The position numbers and the translations under genes are program-made. The notes below the pieces were generated by a model that was not told where the DNA came from, did no database searches, and saw nothing but the letters and a program-made list of their open reading frames with translations. Shown here piece by piece: positions 11,143 to 17,435 of a DNA stretch of 24,000 nucleotides (within the stretch, counting starts at the first letter, position 1; each line of letters opens with the position of its first letter). This stretch comes from an uncultured Verrucomicrobia subdivision 3 bacterium (lineage in GTDB: Bacteria; Verrucomicrobiota; Verrucomicrobiia; Limisphaerales; UBA11358), in NCBI GenBank assembly GCA_903922735.1, contig CAIXUZ010000060.1:239883-263882 (forward strand), read 5' to 3'.

Positions 11143-12246
11143 ATGACAGCGAAACCGGTTGACGCGAACAATCACCACAAAATCTCCGCCCTGGGTGAAA
11201 AGGTTTTAGGCGGAGGCCGTATCACCCATGATGAGGCGATGTTTCTCTTCAACCTTGAATCATCCGCCGATATTCTCGATTTGCTGGCGTGGGCCAACCG
11301 CCTCCGGGAACACTACAAGGGCAACAAGATCCATCTCTGCTCCATTGTCAATGCGAAGGCCGGCGCGTGTTCCGAAAATTGCAGCTTTTGCTCACAATCG
11401 TCGCATTACCAGACCGGCTCGCCGAAATACGGCTTTGTTGATCCCGAGCCCGTGGCTGAAGCCGCCGAGGAGGCGAATAAGAACTCCGTCACGGCCGTCG
11501 GTCTGGTGGCCGCGTGGAAAGGGTTGAACGAAGGACCCCTGCTCGATGAAATTTGCGACCGCGTCCGCGAGATGAAAGTCGCTGGCAAGACGCGCCCCGA
11601 CGTTTCGCTTGGTATCATCAAAAGCCAGCGCATCGCTGACCGCTTGAAAGAAGCTGGCGTCGAATGTTACGGCCATAACCTTGAAAGCTCGCGCCGCTTT
11701 TTCCCACAAACCTGCACCACGCACACGTTCGATGACCGGCTGGAGACCATCGGCTATCTCAAAAAGGCCGGCATCAAGATTTGTTCCGGCGGCATCATCG
11801 GCATGGGCGAAACGCGCGAAGACCGCTGCGACCTGGCGTTTGAATTGAAAGCCATCGGCGCGAATGTCGTGCCCGTAAACATCCTCAATCCCATTCCCGG
11901 CACGCCGTTCGCCCAGAACGCCCCGCTGCCGGTCATGGAAATCCTGAAAACCATCGCCTGCTTCCGTTTCATTTTGCCGCGGCAGGAAATCATGATCGCC
12001 GGCGGACGCACCGTGAACCTGCGCGATGCGCAGAGCATGATTTTCATGGCGGGCGCGAGCGCCCTGATGGTGGGTAATTATCTCACCACGCTGAACCAGC
12101 CGGTGGAAAAAGACCTGCAGATGCTCAAAGACCTCGGCCTCGATCCGAATTGGGACAGTCACGATTTCACTGATCAGGAAACAAGCGTCTGTGGTTGCGG
12201 TGAGACTAACCGCGAAGCAGAAACCGAACTGACCGCCGTGAAATGA
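11143..12246 (+). CDS. bioB: Biotin synthase (radical SAM)
   Basis: The CxxxCxxC motif (CSENCSFC) lies at 11368-11391. YGHNLESS and ICSGGIIGMGET resemble BioB-conserved blocks. The protein is 367 aa. Confidence 0.8.
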   Translation: MTAKPVDANNHHKISALGEKVLGGGRITHDEAMFLFNLESSADILDLLAWANRLREHYKGNKIHLCSIVNAKAGACSENCSFCSQSSHYQTGSPKYGFVDPEPVAEAAEEANKNSVTAVGLVAAWKGLNEGPLLDEICDRVREMKVAGKTRPDVSLGIIKSQRIADRLKEAGVECYGHNLESSRRFFPQTCTTHTFDDRLETIGYLKKAGIKICSGGIIGMGETREDRCDLAFELKAIGANVVPVNILNPIPGTPFAQNAPLPVMEILKTIACFRFILPRQEIMIAGGRTVNLRDAQSMIFMAGASALMVGNYLTTLNQPVEKDLQMLKDLGLDPNWDSHDFTDQETSVCGCGETNREAETELTAVK

Positions 12247-12989
12247 ATCGCCAGCCAGTCACCGGCATGAAATCTGCCTCCTTCACAGCCACGCTTACCT
12301 TATGCCTGTTGCTGGCAATGTCCATCCACGCGAAGGCCCAAGACGCCAAAGGCTCGCTGCGATTGGTGCTCATCGGCGACTCGACGGTTTGCGATTATCC
12401 CACCGACAAACCGCAGCGGGGTTGGGGACAATTTGTTCAGGCCTATTTCAAAGATGAGGTAAAGGTGATCAATCTGGCCAAAGGCGGACGGAGCACGAAA
12501 ACTTTTATTAAAGAAGGACTCTGGCAGAAAACGCTCAATGAAAAACCGGATGTCATCCTGATTCAATTCGGCCATAACGATTCGCACTCGCCGGACAAAC
12601 CCGAAGCGACCAGTGCCAGCACCGATTACAAAGACTATCTGCGCCGCTACATCGACGAAGCGCGCGCGGCAGGAGCGACGCCGGTTTTGATCACTCCGAT
12701 GGTGCGCCGGAATTTTGGCCCGGATGGAAAGCTTAGAGACATTTTGCAACCCTATGCCGAGGCGATGAAACAGGTGGGGGCGGAGAAAAAGGTGCCGGTG
12801 GTTGATTTACACACGTCAAGCTGGGCGCTGGTCGAACCGCTCGGATCTAAAGGCAGCGCCGACATGGCCAGTGCTCCCGGCGACGGCACGCATTTCAACG
12901 GGAAGGGCGCCAAGGCGATGGCGGAACTTGTAATGAAAGAACTCCCAGCCGCTGCGCCGGCATTGCAGAGCCATCTAAAAGGAAAATGA
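12243..12989 (+). CDS. Secreted SGNH/GDSL hydrolase, rhamnogalacturonan-acetylesterase-like
   Basis: All four SGNH blocks are present: LIGDSTV, GGRSTKTF, FGHND and DGTHFN. The signal peptide probably starts at the internal Met (MKSASFTATLTLCLLLAMSIHAKA, ATG 12267). ATG 12243 overlaps the bioB stop (ATGA). Confidence 0.8.
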   Translation: MNRQPVTGMKSASFTATLTLCLLLAMSIHAKAQDAKGSLRLVLIGDSTVCDYPTDKPQRGWGQFVQAYFKDEVKVINLAKGGRSTKTFIKEGLWQKTLNEKPDVILIQFGHNDSHSPDKPEATSASTDYKDYLRRYIDEARAAGATPVLITPMVRRNFGPDGKLRDILQPYAEAMKQVGAEKKVPVVDLHTSSWALVEPLGSKGSADMASAPGDGTHFNGKGAKAMAELVMKELPAAAPALQSHLKGK

Positions 12990-13175: not shown

Positions 13176-13466
13176 ATGCACGTTGTGATCCGCACATATT
13201 ACGGCAAAGGCACCAAAGCACTGTTCGACGCCGGTGAGCAGCACAAAGCCGAGCTGCAGCGCCTTATGCGCACCGTTGAGGGACTGGTCAGCTACACGCT
13301 GGTCCGCGACGGCCAAGGCGGTTATTCCGTGACCGTCTGCAAAGAAAAACGCGCCCTCCGGCAAAGCCGTAAAAAAGCCGTGGAATTCCTCAGCAAACAT
13401 GCTCCGGGGAAGAACTTGGCCGCCATGCACATCTACGAAGGCAAAGTCATCGCCCACGTCCAATAA
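13176..13466 (+). CDS. Small hypothetical protein (96 aa), possibly ferredoxin-like/ABM-type fold
   Basis: GAGGTG lies 6 nt upstream of the ATG. Third positions are G/C-rich. The fold guess rests only on the overall pattern (MHVVIRTYYGKG...GLVSYTLVRDGQGGYSVTVC) and is weak. The larger antisense ORF 13056..13550 was rejected. Confidence 0.6.
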   Translation: MHVVIRTYYGKGTKALFDAGEQHKAELQRLMRTVEGLVSYTLVRDGQGGYSVTVCKEKRALRQSRKKAVEFLSKHAPGKNLAAMHIYEGKVIAHVQ

Positions 13467-13641
13467 GCGGCGCGGAATCCGGATCGCCGGTTTTCCAAAG
13501 CACCGGCTCCCAGTGGTGGCACCACCTGCCAAGATGCTCGTTCCACCCAATTTTGACGGAAACGGCGCTAAAATGTTGATTTTAAACTGCTTCCAGCGAT
13601 TTTTGCCTTGGAAACGCCCGTTTTGAGCTTGGGAGAAAACG

Positions 13642-13851
13642 TTTTTCCCAAGGGGATTTTCTTTTTTCCCAAGGGGTAAAAGGTTTTTCCCAAGGGAAAT
13701 CTCTCTTTCCCCAAGGGGAAAACGCTTTTTCCCAACGGAAATCCCTCTTTTCCCAACGGGAAAATGTCTTTCCCCAAGGGGATTTTCTCTTTTCCCAAGA
13801 GGAAAATGGTTTTTCCCAAGGGAAATTTTATTTTCCCCAAGCCTAAAAGGT
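13642..13851. repeat. Ten tandem 21-bp repeats with core TTTYCCCAAGGGRAAA
   Basis: The CCCAA anchor recurs at 13647, 13668, 13689, 13710, 13731, 13752, 13773, 13794, 13815 and 13836, exactly 21 bp apart with no indels. Many units carry a 7-bp inverted repeat (TTTTCCC..GGGAAAA). Degenerate or inverted copies lie just upstream (13600-13641, e.g. CTTGGG at 13628-13633). Confidence 0.9.
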
Positions 13852-14129
13852 CGGGCTGAAGCCGGTCAGGCCGGATCCGGACGGTTTCCAATCATACCCG
13901 GGACAAACCTCCTCTCCCAGCGGGTTGGCCGAGGTAAAAACAGCTATCGCCAGCGCGCCTCATGGAACTGGAGGACGTTCAATACCTCATCGCCGAGGCC
14001 ATCAAAGAACTGGGGCCGGCGTAACGACGCGCCGCCTTTGCTGAACCGCTCGGCAAGGAAATCACCGGCGTAAAAAAGCGATGGACAGGAACTTACCGAC
14101 CAAATAGAGTCAAACCTTAAAAAAGGATA

Positions 14130-14163
14130 GGCCAACAAACCCGCCGTCCATTATCTGTTGGAC
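14130..14163 (+). other. Short inverted pair of integron-type core sites (GGCCAAC ... GTTGGAC); truncated attC or attI-like simple site
   Basis: GGCCAAC (14130-14136) and GTTGGAC (14157-14163, fits GTTRRRY) are separated by 20 nt. That is too short for a normal attC. GTTGGAC is the exact reverse complement of the R'' box of the next attC (14680-14686). Confidence 0.4.
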
Positions 14164-14796
14164 ATCATAGCACGCGTATGCGAATCCCGACAATTGCCAC
14201 CCTTCTGATTCTGCTCTCTTACGCATCAGTCGTTCGCGCCGACGAGCCCCTCGCGCCGCCGGCACGCTACGAAGTGCAGAACTCGTCCCACAAGTATGTT
14301 GCCACTCTCGATCCGAAGACCGGCGTGGCGGTGCGCGCCACGGGTTCTTCCAACATCCTCTGGACAGCGACGAACTGGTTTCGAGTCGCCTTTCTAGCAG
14401 ATGATGGCCATCACTTTGTTACAGGTTGCGACGGCATGAACCTCATTCCCCAAGATTACACGAAAGACCTGGTGTTGGTTACCTTCTGGCAACAGGACAA
14501 GAAGATTCGAGACCTGACCGTGGGAGAGTTGTTTCCAGACACGCGCATTTTGGAGAAGACTGTTTCGCACTATCACTGGGGCAGCATCACGGGCATCACG
14601 AATAGCACGCTGATTGTCAGCAGATGCGACGGCAAGGTGGTGCGGTTTGACGTGACCACCGGGAGGATCACGAAATGATGTCCAACAAGGCGCTGGAGCC
14701 AACAGCCGTTATGCCACTCACTTTGATGATCACCGACCACATCACATCACCGACTTCGGTCACGCCGCTTTCCACGGCTGTGGCTCAGCTTGGTCG
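14158..14796 (+). mobile_element. Putative integron gene cassette 1 (ORF + attC)
   Basis: It is bounded by G|TTGGAC (14157|14158) and G|TTAGGC (14796|14797). It contains one ORF that starts 20 nt after the left boundary and ends 1 nt before its attC. Circularising it would give R' GTTGGAC, perfectly complementary to its own R'' GTCCAAC. Confidence 0.65.
14178..14678 (+). CDS. Hypothetical secreted protein (166 aa), cassette-borne
   Basis: The signal peptide is MRIPTIATLLILLSYASVVRA|DE. I recognise no family. The ORF fills the cassette. Confidence 0.7.
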   Translation: MRIPTIATLLILLSYASVVRADEPLAPPARYEVQNSSHKYVATLDPKTGVAVRATGSSNILWTATNWFRVAFLADDGHHFVTGCDGMNLIPQDYTKDLVLVTFWQQDKKIRDLTVGELFPDTRILEKTVSHYHWGSITGITNSTLIVSRCDGKVVRFDVTTGRITK

Positions 14797-14802
14797 TTAG
14801 GC
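14680..14802 (+). mobile_element. Integron attC recombination site (123 bp)
   Basis: R'' is GTCCAAC (14680-14686, fits RYYYAAC). A 5-nt unpaired spacer follows. Left arm GCTG[G]AGCCA[A]CAGCCGT (14692-14709) pairs with ACGGCTGTGGCTCAGC (14774-14789), giving 16 bp with two single-base bulges (G14696, A14702). A variable loop spans 14710-14773, followed by a 6-nt spacer. R' is GTTAGGC (14796-14802, fits GTTRRRY). The site starts 2 nt after the ORF stop. Confidence 0.75.
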
Positions 14803-14822
14803 GCACTTGCGCTCCATCATAA

Positions 14823-15188
14823 ATGAAATCCATTCGAGAGCACGTCCGGTCAGAGTGGCTATACAAGTTGAGCGTGTATTTGTGTGCCACCGTGCCTCTT
14901 TGCTTGGGACTGATTTGGATATACACATTTGGATTTACGTCCTATCGCAGCCATTTGCGCTTTGTTGGTATCCCACTTGGCTTTGCATTCGTCGCTCTTG
15001 CAGTTAGCATGATGGCGATGCGCATATGGGCAGTTATGATTTCAGTAGTTCTTGCATTAGCTACCACCATTTTCTCATTTATGGTTGCCCTCTTAGGGCT
15101 TTGGTTTTATTGGAGTGTCGTGTTCCTCGGTGTTGCTTATGTGACCATCATTTTCGAGCGATTCCGCAACCGAGATACTTGGACATGA
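14823..15188 (+). CDS. Hypothetical small membrane protein (121 aa, ~3-4 TM helices), cassette-borne
   Basis: Hydrophobic segments include VYLCATVPLCLGLIWIY, IPLGFAFVALAVSMMAM, VMISVVLALATTIFSFMVALLGLWFYWSVVFLGVAYV. Codon usage is visibly more A/T-ending than in neighbouring genes. The ORF starts 26 nt after the G|TTAGGC boundary. Confidence 0.6.
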   Translation: MKSIREHVRSEWLYKLSVYLCATVPLCLGLIWIYTFGFTSYRSHLRFVGIPLGFAFVALAVSMMAMRIWAVMISVVLALATTIFSFMVALLGLWFYWSVVFLGVAYVTIIFERFRNRDTWT

Positions 15189-15195
15189 TAGATGC

Positions 15196-15228
15196 GCCTA
15201 ATATCAGGATAGGCTGCAAAGATTAGAC
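15196..15228 (+). other. Degenerate or terminal attC remnant (GCCTAAT ... ATTAGAC)
   Basis: GCCTAAT (15196-15202) lies 7 nt after the ORF stop. It is the exact complement of A+TTAGGC, where TTAGGC is the first 6 nt of this putative cassette. Two downstream xTTRRRY-like sites begin with A: ATTAGAC at 15222-15228 and ATTAAGC at 15293-15299. There is no convincing long stem, so this call is weak. Confidence 0.35.
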
Positions 15229-15240
15229 GAATTTCTGAAA

Positions 15241-15282
15241 ACAAAAAAGCGCGGACGGCTTTCGCCCTCCGCGCTTTTGAAT
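15241..15282. terminator. Bidirectional rho-independent terminator between convergent genes (cassette ORF and pnp)
   Basis: The stem AGCGCGGA (15248-15255) / TCCGCGCT (15268-15275) is flanked by an A-run on the left (ACAAAAAA) and a T-run on the right (TTTTGAATTT). Confidence 0.75.
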
Positions 15283-15293
15283 TTCCTGGCTGA

Positions 15294-17435
15294 TTAAGCC
15301 TTGGGCGCTTCGGCCGCCGCGGCTTCCTTGTCGCGGTCTTCCATCGCGGCTTTGCGCGAGAGGCGGACGCGGCCTTTTTCATCCACGCCGAGGCATTTTA
15401 CGGTGATGTCATCGCCGACCTTGCAGATGTCTTCCGTGTTCTTCACGCGGAAGTTCGCCAGTTCGCTGATGTGCACCAGGCCGTCCTTGCCCGGGAGGAA
15501 TTCGACGAACGCGCCGAATTCTTTCACGGTCACCACCTTGCCGCGGTAAATCTTGCCGATTTCCGCTTCCGCCGTGCAGCCGGTGATGGCGTCCACGGCG
15601 ATCTTCATGCCCTCCGCCGAGACGGAGAAAATGTTGACCGTGCCGTCGTCCTCGATGTCGATTTCGCAGCCGGATTCCTCGACGAGGCGCTTGATGTTCT
15701 TGCCGCCGGGCCCGATGATCGCGCCGATCTTCTCGGGGTTGATCTTGAGCGTGGTGATGCGCGGGGCGTATTTGCTGATGTCCTTGCGCGGCTCGGCAAT
15801 GGTCTTGGCCATCTCGGCGAGAATCGCGAGGCGGGCAATGCGGGCTTTTTCCACCGCAATGTCCATGATGGCATGCGGGAGGCCTTTGAGCTTCAAGTCG
15901 AGCTGGAAGCCGGTGATGCCCTTCTCGGTGCCGGCAATTTTGCAGTCCATGTCGCAATACGCGTCTTCCCAGCCGATGATGTCGGTGAGGAGCTGGTATT
16001 TGGAGATGGTGTTGCCGCTGTATTCCGTGCAGATGCCGACGCTGATGCCGGCCACCGGGCGGATCATCGGGACACCGGCGTCGAGCAGCGCGAGCGTGCC
16101 GCCGCAGACGGATGCCATGGAGGTGGAACCGTTGGATTCCATGATTTCGCTGGTGACGCGAATGGTATAGGGATAATTCGCCGTCGGAATCATGGATTCA
16201 ATCGATCGTTCGGCGAGGGCGCCGTGGCCGATTTCGCGGCGGCCGGGACCGCTGATGCGGCCGGTTTCGCCGACGGAGAAATTCGGGAAGTTGTAGTGCA
16301 GGATGAATTTCTTCTCGTTCGAGCCGCCGGTGTAGGAATCAAATTCCTGCGTGTCATCGCCGGTGCCGAGCGTGACGAGCGAAACGGCCTGCGTTTCGCC
16401 GCGGGCAAACAAGGCCGAGCCGTGCGCGCGGGGCAGGATGCTGACTTCGCTGGAGATCGGGCGGACCTGTTCAAAATTACGGCCGTCGAGACGCTTGCCG
16501 CTTTCGAGGATCAATTTGCGGACGGCTTCCTTCTGGATGTAGTAGAAAGCGTCGTTGATGACGAAGGGCGTGACTTTTTCGGCGCCGTATTTGGCGACGA
16601 GCTTTTCGCCGACTTCGTTCTTGATGGCGTTGCACGCGGCTTCGCGGTTGAGCTTGCCGGGCAGGAGCAGCGCGGGGACGAAACGGTCGCCGGCGAGGGC
16701 TTTCGCATCGGCGAGAATTTCGTCGGGGACGATCTTGAGCGTGATTTCGCGCTTTTTCTTGCCGACTTTCGCGACGAGTTCCTTCTGCGCCGCGATGATC
16801 GGCTGGATGGCTTCCTGGGCGAATTTCAAAGCCGCGCTGAAGTCGGCTTCAGAAATTTCCTTGGCCGCGCCTTCATACATGACGATGTCTTTTTCGTTGC
16901 CGACATAGACAAGATCGAGATCGCTCTCGGCCTGCTCGGCGTGCGTGGGGTTCGCCACGAACTTGCCACCGATGCGGCCGATGCGCGCCGCCCCGAGCGG
17001 GCCGGCCCACGGAATGTCGGAAACCATCAACGCGGCGCTCGCGCCGACGATGCTCAAAATATCGGGATCGTTCTCGCCGTCCGCGCTCAGCAGCACGGTC
17101 TGGACCTGGACTTCGTTATACCAGCCCTTCGGAAAGAGCGGGCGGATCGGGCGGTCGGTGAGGCGGCAGGTGAGAATTTCCTTTTCCGTCGGACGGCCTT
17201 CGCGCTTGAAATAGCCGCCGGGGAATTTGCCGGCCGCGGCCGCCTTTTCGCGATAGTCCACGGTGAGCGGGAAGAAGTCCTGGCCTTCCTTGGCCTTGGT
17301 CGCGGCCACGGCGGCCACGATGACGATGGTTTCGCCCATCTGGACGGTCACGGCTCCGTCCGCCTGCTTGGCCAATTTGCCGGATTCAATAATGATCTGT
17401 TTGTCGCCGATGGCGGCGGTAATTTTCTCTGACAT
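15294..17435 (-). CDS. pnp: Polyribonucleotide nucleotidyltransferase (PNPase)
   Basis: The 713-aa protein has two RNase PH-like halves, a KH region ([27 protein letters not shown]) and a C-terminal S1 domain ([20 protein letters not shown]). It shows the canonical rpsO-pnp arrangement. The antisense ORF 15471..17432 is an artefact. Confidence 0.95.

Follow-up and report, generated by a model that had tools for sequence, protein, structure and literature searches.

Beside the pnp gene of an uncultured Verrucomicrobia subdivision 3 bacterium lies what we read as a stranded fragment of an integron array, comprising two gene cassettes and situated far from the genome's only integron integrase. 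The stretch analysed (the window) is 24,000 nt long and corresponds to C60:239883-263882 of a 4.48-Mb assembly (82 contigs, 57% G+C); throughout, C-numbers denote contigs of this source genome and L-numbers denote loci from other genomes or metagenomic arrays. We put the probability of this reading at about 0.87. The initial annotation, which worked from complementary core-site heptamers, had proposed an array of two to three cassettes abutting pnp, with a single intact attC recombination site and decayed sites at the outer ends. Every heptamer it named, from GTTGGCC (13924-13930) to ATTAAGC (15293-15299), is where it was placed. Two of the cassettes are borne out by homologues in other arrays; the third is not.

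The first cassette (14158-14796, plus strand, 639 nt) starts with TTGGAC, immediately after the boundary 14157/14158 (G|TTGGAC, with the bar marking the boundary), and its last base is the G of the R' box of its own attC. Such sites are conserved in structure and not in sequence. An R'' box of the form RYYYAAC and an R' box of the form G|TTRRRY enclose an imperfect L''/L' repeat, set off by unpaired spacers of 5-6 nt; extrahelical bases are found on the R''-proximal arm, and the length is about 57-141 nt. The attC of cassette 1 (14680-14802, plus strand, 123 nt) is recognised by its sequence, by its fold and by an independent covariance model. It is composed of R'' GTCCAAC (14680-14686), the spacer AAGGC, the L'' arm GCTG[G]AGCCA[A]CAGCCGT (14692-14709), a variable loop of ~64 nt, the L' arm ACGGCTGTGGCTCAGC (14774-14789), the spacer TTGGTC, and R' G|TTAGGC (14796-14802). 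Both R boxes, GTCCAAC and GTTAGGC, fit their consensus motifs. The stem has 16 bp (4 bp, bulge, 5 bp, bulge, 7 bp), and the bulged G and A, bracketed above, are the two extrahelical bases on the R''-proximal arm. Complementarity between the two ends of the cassette extends to 12 nt, with GTTGGACATCAT (14157-14168) the exact reverse complement of ATGATGTCCAAC (14675-14686).

The covariance model, R1, was built from 14 seed attCs taken from C49, C68, L021, L023, L024, L026 and L027, with none from the window; it is our own model and distinct from attc_4.cm of IntegronFinder. When RNAalifold was run on the seed alignment, the L stem emerged with its bulges, and 11 of its 12 pairs showed compensatory changes. 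R1 scores 14680-14802 at 54.2 bits (E-value 1.6e-15 in the window, 3e-13 genome-wide), and this is the only significant attC in the 24 kb. The next-best matches in the window score 10.5 bits (E-value 0.39) and include 14130-14163, tied with unrelated positions. Of the flanking sites that the initial annotation had called decayed, one is this 10.5-bit match and the other scores 5.0 bits. A heuristic scanner with strict settings, applied genome-wide, likewise ranked 14680-14802 at the top; it gave 25 matches, against 7 in reversed-sequence decoys. That hand-written scanner missed the attC on C49, a relaxed version gave as many matches in the decoys as in the genome, and the covariance model replaced both. 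Searches of the genome by BLAST and nhmmer with the window attC as query returned no match. The attC is supported by its architecture and by covariation, not by stability, and 14158-14796 is a genuine integron cassette with a canonical attC.

The gene in this cassette can be followed into other arrays. Open reading frame (ORF) 1 (14178-14678, plus strand) encodes a protein of 166 amino acids with a signal-peptide-like N-terminal helix and a small all-beta domain, its function unassigned: no Pfam family matched it, and a fold search with its AlphaFold model (predicted local distance difference test score 89.7) returned partial WD40/beta-propeller-like matches only (template modelling score about 0.43). 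Homologues fall into 34 clusters. The gene was not found in 60 other species of the genus; it is an acquired accessory gene. In L023 a homologue with 75% identity occupies a cassette after a 438-residue integrase with PF13495 and PF00589; the ends of this cassette read ...TTTTCG|TTGGACATCC... and ...GTCCAAC-attC-G|TTAGCC. In L027 (76%) and L043 (85%) a canonical attC ending in G|TTGGAC precedes the homologue, and GTCCAAC and an attC follow it. BLAST homology between the window and these three loci starts at 14156-14157 and ends at 14688-14692. L021 (79%) preserves the G|TTGGAC junction, preceded there by unrelated DNA that is not attC, and L044 (80%) has a homologue without an attC after it. 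Cassette 1 is thus seen as a mobile unit elsewhere with identical end points (L023, L027 and L043, with L021 as a further locus). The proposed boundaries at 14157/14158 and 14796/14797 agree with the limits of homology in other arrays and with a cassette start in L026, described below.

A separate observation concerns the attC itself. Across five hosts the ORF1 cassette keeps its ends (TTGGAC... and ...GTCCAAC) at 77-88% DNA identity, and homology stops 9-24 nt into the attC. The attC body (window 14688-14796) cannot be aligned between hosts (L021, L023, L027, L043). Instead, attC bodies resemble their neighbours in the array of their own host: that of the window is of the C49 and L026 type, two attCs of L023 are near-identical, and the attCs of L027 are alike. 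Cargo gene and attC body might then evolve or move separately, through replacement or concerted conversion of attC bodies within a host, as opposed to plain neutral divergence. We consider this improbable; if true, attC-body replacement would bear on the open question of how cassettes get host-specific attCs.

The second cassette (14797-15228, plus strand) starts with TTAGGCGCA and encodes ORF2 (14823-15188, plus strand), a hydrophobic (membrane) protein of 121 amino acids. The segment is low in G+C, at 45% (genome, 57%). Homologues of the protein include P0036 (75%), and P0037 and P0038 (55%). The initial annotation had this cassette run from 14797 to a core site at either ATTAGAC (15222-15228) or ATTAAGC. 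The start holds. In L026 the ORF2 homologue (55%) is found in a canonical cassette, G|TTAGGTGCAATGCGGCC-ATG ... TGA-N12-GCACCTAAC AAGTC GCCGGAGCCAAC... GGCTCAGC TTTTTTC G|TTAGAC, so this gene too is carried as a cassette elsewhere. Because the 5' end of that cassette, G|TTAGGTGCA, is homologous to G|TTAGGCGCACTTGCGC of the window, 14796/14797 is a true cassette boundary on both sides. Within the window, TTAGGCGCA (14797-14805) is complementary over 9 nt to TGCGCCTAA (15193-15201), and simple arithmetic gives a chance expectation of about 1.5e-4 for such a match in a 40-nt target. The match is followed by T, at a position where C is required for a functional R''. The same rule of complementarity between R'' and the cassette start holds in L026, C49 and C72.

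What follows ORF2 is an eroded attC (15193-15228, plus strand). An R'' remnant, TGCGCCTAAt (AAC changed to AAT; the heptamer GCCTAAT is at 15196-15202), is followed by 19 nt without L stems and then by ATTAGAC. R1 scores 15195-15228 at 5.0 bits, all of it from pairing of the R boxes; the alignment omits the entire L stem. A similarly shortened site, GATGCGCCAAC-12 nt-TTAGAC, follows the 75% ORF2 homologue in L024. On these comparisons, 14797 to about 15222 is a second real cassette with an eroded attC, its right limit uncertain within the interval from 15222/15223 to about 15235.

The more distant of the two proposed ends, ATTAAGC at 15293, is ruled out. The sequence at 15235-15299 (minus strand) is native chromosome and not cassette: an intrinsic, bidirectional terminator, whose stem spans 15249-15274 and whose fold z-scores are -4.5 and -5.6, together with the pnp stop codon. 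From 15235-15243 on (A-tract, GC hairpin, pnp stop) the window is 77-97% identical to 11 species of the genus, and the sequences upstream of this point all differ. Since the terminator region is common to these cassette-free species, cassette 2 must end at or before about 15235. No attC was found downstream of pnp in the 11 relatives, which indicates that there is no conserved hotspot after pnp. The terminator hairpin (AAAAAAGCGCGGACGGCTTTCGCCNTCCGCGCTTT, window 15226-15284) is itself present in several copies downstream of pnp in some relatives (L010-L012), and elsewhere in the source genome (C76:34931-34984); it has the look of a terminator module in repeated use.

A chain of heptamers of this kind could in principle be chance complementarity in ordinary intergenic DNA that holds no cassettes. 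The possibility was measured at 48,269 random GTT positions, each searched for NNNNAAC 20-140 nt upstream and for the exact complement GTTNNNN 100-1500 nt further upstream. An equivalent pair of 7-mers was found at 18.7% of positions, or 3.6% if the box had to lie 20-40 nt upstream. Pairs of 7-mers are therefore common, as this explanation needs, and the fold energy of the attC is unremarkable as well. The complementarities at the two cassettes are, however, longer than 7 nt (12 nt and 9 nt), the attC has an E-value of 1.6e-15 under the independent covariance model, and five further loci have these genes delimited at identical bases. As an account of the whole locus chance is extremely improbable; it is refuted for sites 1 and 2, and stands for the proposed third cassette only.

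That third cassette, placed at 13925-14157 and 233 bp long, was delimited by GTTGGCC and by GGCCAAC at 14130-14136 (both plus strand). We judge the pair a chance match. It does not extend past 7 nt (the 8th base is a mismatch), which leaves it in the class found at 18.7% of random positions. The 10.5 bits that R1 gives to 14130-14163 come from R-box pairing only, with the L stem deleted. The GGCCAAC box is not kept in L044, which shares the surrounding leader sequence, and no block of that leader is less conserved than the one holding the box. The chance-level heptamer pair, the low score and the shared leader together rule the cassette out, and of the two to three cassettes first proposed, two remain. 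The general lesson is that a seven-base core-site complementarity is, alone, no evidence.

The leader (14031-14157, plus strand, about 127 nt) lies directly upstream of the first G|TT and is not an attC. Compared at the same offset with the DNA that precedes the L044 homologue of ORF1, it is identical at 67/130 positions, against 32.4 +/- 5.4 (maximum 45) at control offsets, and the two share two exact 10-mers at identical offsets. A promoter scan found a sole plus-strand promoter-like match in the region, the sigma-70-like candidate TGGACA-17 nt-TAGAGT (14082-14110, plus strand). L044 keeps both hexamers (TCGACA / TAGTGT), and the spacer between them has diverged. In L044 the leader adjoins a divergent trpA. 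No other ORF1 locus shares it.

An integrase that could act on such cassettes is present in the genome. The protein encoded at C49:1127-2050 matches the integron integrase model TIGR02249 at 423.5 bits (cut-off 265), the sole match above the cut-off in the genome. None of 14 control genomes passes the cut-off. Of the same 60 other species of the genus in which ORF1 was sought, 28 do, so integrons are a normal possession of this group. The nearest relatives of the integrase (IntI) and the cassette homologues come from metagenome-assembled genomes of Verrucomicrobiia / Limisphaerales. Divergent from the C49 intI gene is an attI-like junction, ...TAATTAATTAG|TTAGGTG, followed by a cassette and then by an attC (C49:334-442) that reads ACCTAAC CAGTC GCCG[G]AGCC[A]ACGTGG ... 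CCACGTGGCTCAGC TTTTTTC G|TTGATA. The first C49 attC and the window attC have the same L-box type, with GCYGGAGCCAAC...GTGGCTCAGC boxes in common.

In addition to the window site, R1 run on the whole genome finds attCs on C49, C23, C52, C72 and C68 and a pair on C60 near 58 kb. The segment C60:59640-60250 shares 94.5% identity with C49:2116-2707, which directly follows the 3' end of the C49 intI and includes its array of 21-nt repeats. It lies ~1 kb from the two C60 attCs, which are on the minus strand (58156-58617), and intI is missing; C60:58156-60250 is a decayed second integron. On C72, an almost empty cassette of about 185 nt (C72:47584-47769) has G|TTAGAAAACATGAGGGCAGAGAG paired with CTCTCTGCTCTCATGTTTTCTTAC, then an attC of 34.8 bits, and the cassette after it encodes a 200-residue protein with a PEP-CTERM-like tail.

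Two routes by which the cassettes may have come to stand beside pnp can be set against this background. The first is erosion. A longer array or integron platform, or an imported block, would have lost its integrase or upstream cassettes, along with the flanking attC stems, through deletions, and the leader would be what is left of an attI/Pc-type region, or of an attC once located upstream. The segment C60:59640-60250, about 1 kb from two attCs, is an instance of integron decay in this same genome; the attC after the ORF2 homologue is shortened in L024 also, and the leader travels with ORF1 in L044. Against this, a tblastn search of 13300-14300 found no remnant of intI, and a decayed attC in the leader had to be rejected, the leader having neither an attC-like fold (z -1.3 and -0.1) nor any signal from the covariance model. 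We give erosion slightly less than even odds.

The second route is insertion by IntI at a site that is not an att site (attG-type, with the consensus GWT), where a cassette circle recombined through its attC with an intergenic GTT. The insertion would have been into the leader, in an ancestor common to L044 and this locus, and not in the present pnp context. This mechanism, its GWT consensus and the resulting formation of single attC sites lacking an integron integrase (SALINs) and of small clusters of such sites (CALINs) have been described (bioRxiv 10.1101/2022.09.11.507474). The left junction coincides exactly with G|TT, preceded by DNA that is not attC, in both the window and L044, and independently so in L021, where the upstream DNA is unrelated. 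The 127-nt left flank is common to L044 in a different neighbourhood (trpA there, pnp here), so it is not simply native to the present locus; the complete attC that this route would place at the right junction is missing. We find such an insertion rather unlikely as the origin of this locus.

The leader and cassettes may also have been imported together as one block. Cassette 1 is a complete unit of the promoterless type, made up of a gene for a secreted protein of 166 residues and a canonical attC. The bottom strand of the attC can fold into the hairpin of R boxes, spacers and L boxes, complete with two extrahelical bases, to which integron integrases respond; the crossover point is at G|TT, 14796/14797. 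Cassette 2 has lost the stem of its attC and kept only an R'' remnant in which AAC mutated to AAT. Transcription most likely runs from the promoter-like element in the leader, through both genes, to the bidirectional pnp terminator. As the C49 attCs are of the same type, the C49 IntI could still act on the one intact attC, and because neither flank offers a good partner site, the pair of cassettes is probably fixed in effect.

Several results weigh against our interpretation. The minimum free energy of the attC is no better than that of shuffled sequence (z -0.4). The promoter is a consensus match only. The CALIN rule of IntegronFinder asks for at least 2 clustered attC sites without an integrase, and the locus, with one passing attC, is below it and formally a SALIN. 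In an empty-site comparison with 40 relatives, DNA homology was limited to pnp and its terminator, and no insertion end points could be read. Synteny with relatives in the genus breaks at the pnp terminator, these relatives being too divergent; the GDSL-lipase neighbour is likewise not syntenic in relatives.

The gene order around the cassettes is bioB (11143-12246), a GDSL lipase (12243-12989), an ORF of 96 amino acids, a tandem array of 21-nt repeats (13631-13841), a stretch without a convincing ORF (13842-14157), ORF1, ORF2, the strong bidirectional terminator, pnp (15294-17435, minus strand) and rpsO (minus strand). This arrangement was assembled identically in at least 4 other samples (4 other assemblies from the same study, identical in sequence).

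The 21-nt-period array (9.5 copies of a TTTTCCCAAGGGGA-type palindromic unit at window 13596-13852) has one other copy in the genome, at C72:47014-47226, with 79-85% identity and inverted, and with an attC and a G|TT junction some 400 nt away. The genome contains 49 arrays of period 21, 42, 63 or 84, each with its own unit, and many with TTCC..GGAA palindromes. Such an array is found within 2 kb of 5 of the 7 attC loci (random expectation 4%, binomial p 2e-6), and in L026, a metagenomic array, the start is likewise preceded by 13.6 copies of a 21-nt repeat. A general link between 21-nt arrays and integrons was rejected, as none occurs in 80 IntI loci (707 kb) from other genomes; the link is specific to this genome. 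A family of hairpins in which tandem ATTCAAC / GCTCAAC heptamers face their complements (GTTGAAT) mimics R''/R' boxes and gives false positives in naive attC scans (C1:44714-44794, C11:72908-72995, C38:78737-78825, C43:18594-18678 and others). The first 52 positions of L026 (L026:1-52) are an Illumina Nextera adapter (…AGATGTGTATAAGAGACAG), an assembly contamination at the contig end.

For Verrucomicrobiota, the locus is a clean illustration of a small cassette remnant without an integrase. It also demonstrates that comparison with other arrays can reveal a cassette whose eroded attC escapes attC finders. What it contributes is chiefly annotation, along with two cargo proteins not yet characterised and a possible clue to the host specificity of attCs.

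Among known systems, the locus is no complete integron, as there is no intI at the site and the only TIGR02249 match above the cut-off is on C49. CALINs and SALINs, that is, clustered and single attC sites without an integron integrase (IntegronFinder 2.0, PMC9024848; Loot et al., bioRxiv 10.1101/2022.09.11.507474), are close to it. The locus resembles them in its canonical attC, its co-oriented cassette-type ORFs, the lack of an integrase nearby, its small size and a chromosome that has an integron elsewhere. It differs in having one intact attC, with a second cassette that can be recognised only through other arrays, and in the promoter-bearing leader, common to another genome, that precedes the first cassette. 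On the comparative evidence it is a decayed two-cassette CALIN. Sedentary chromosomal integrons (IntI, attI and long arrays, as in the Vibrio superintegron) are similar in that the attC is of the type found beside the C49 intI and in the L026 array, and in their small cargo genes of unassigned function; here, however, there is no intI or recognisable attI, and there are two cassettes as against tens. Insertions at attG (GWT) sites likewise have a left junction exactly at G|TT, non-attC DNA upstream and a promoter-like element ahead of the cassette, but the left flank here is not demonstrably native, and the right-hand attC expected from that route is eroded. SALINs and small CALINs, off-site insertion and expression from nearby promoters have all been described (bioRxiv 10.1101/2022.09.11.507474). 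The locus is an ordinary leftover of a known kind, with a biology already described under integrons, CALINs, SALINs and off-site insertion.

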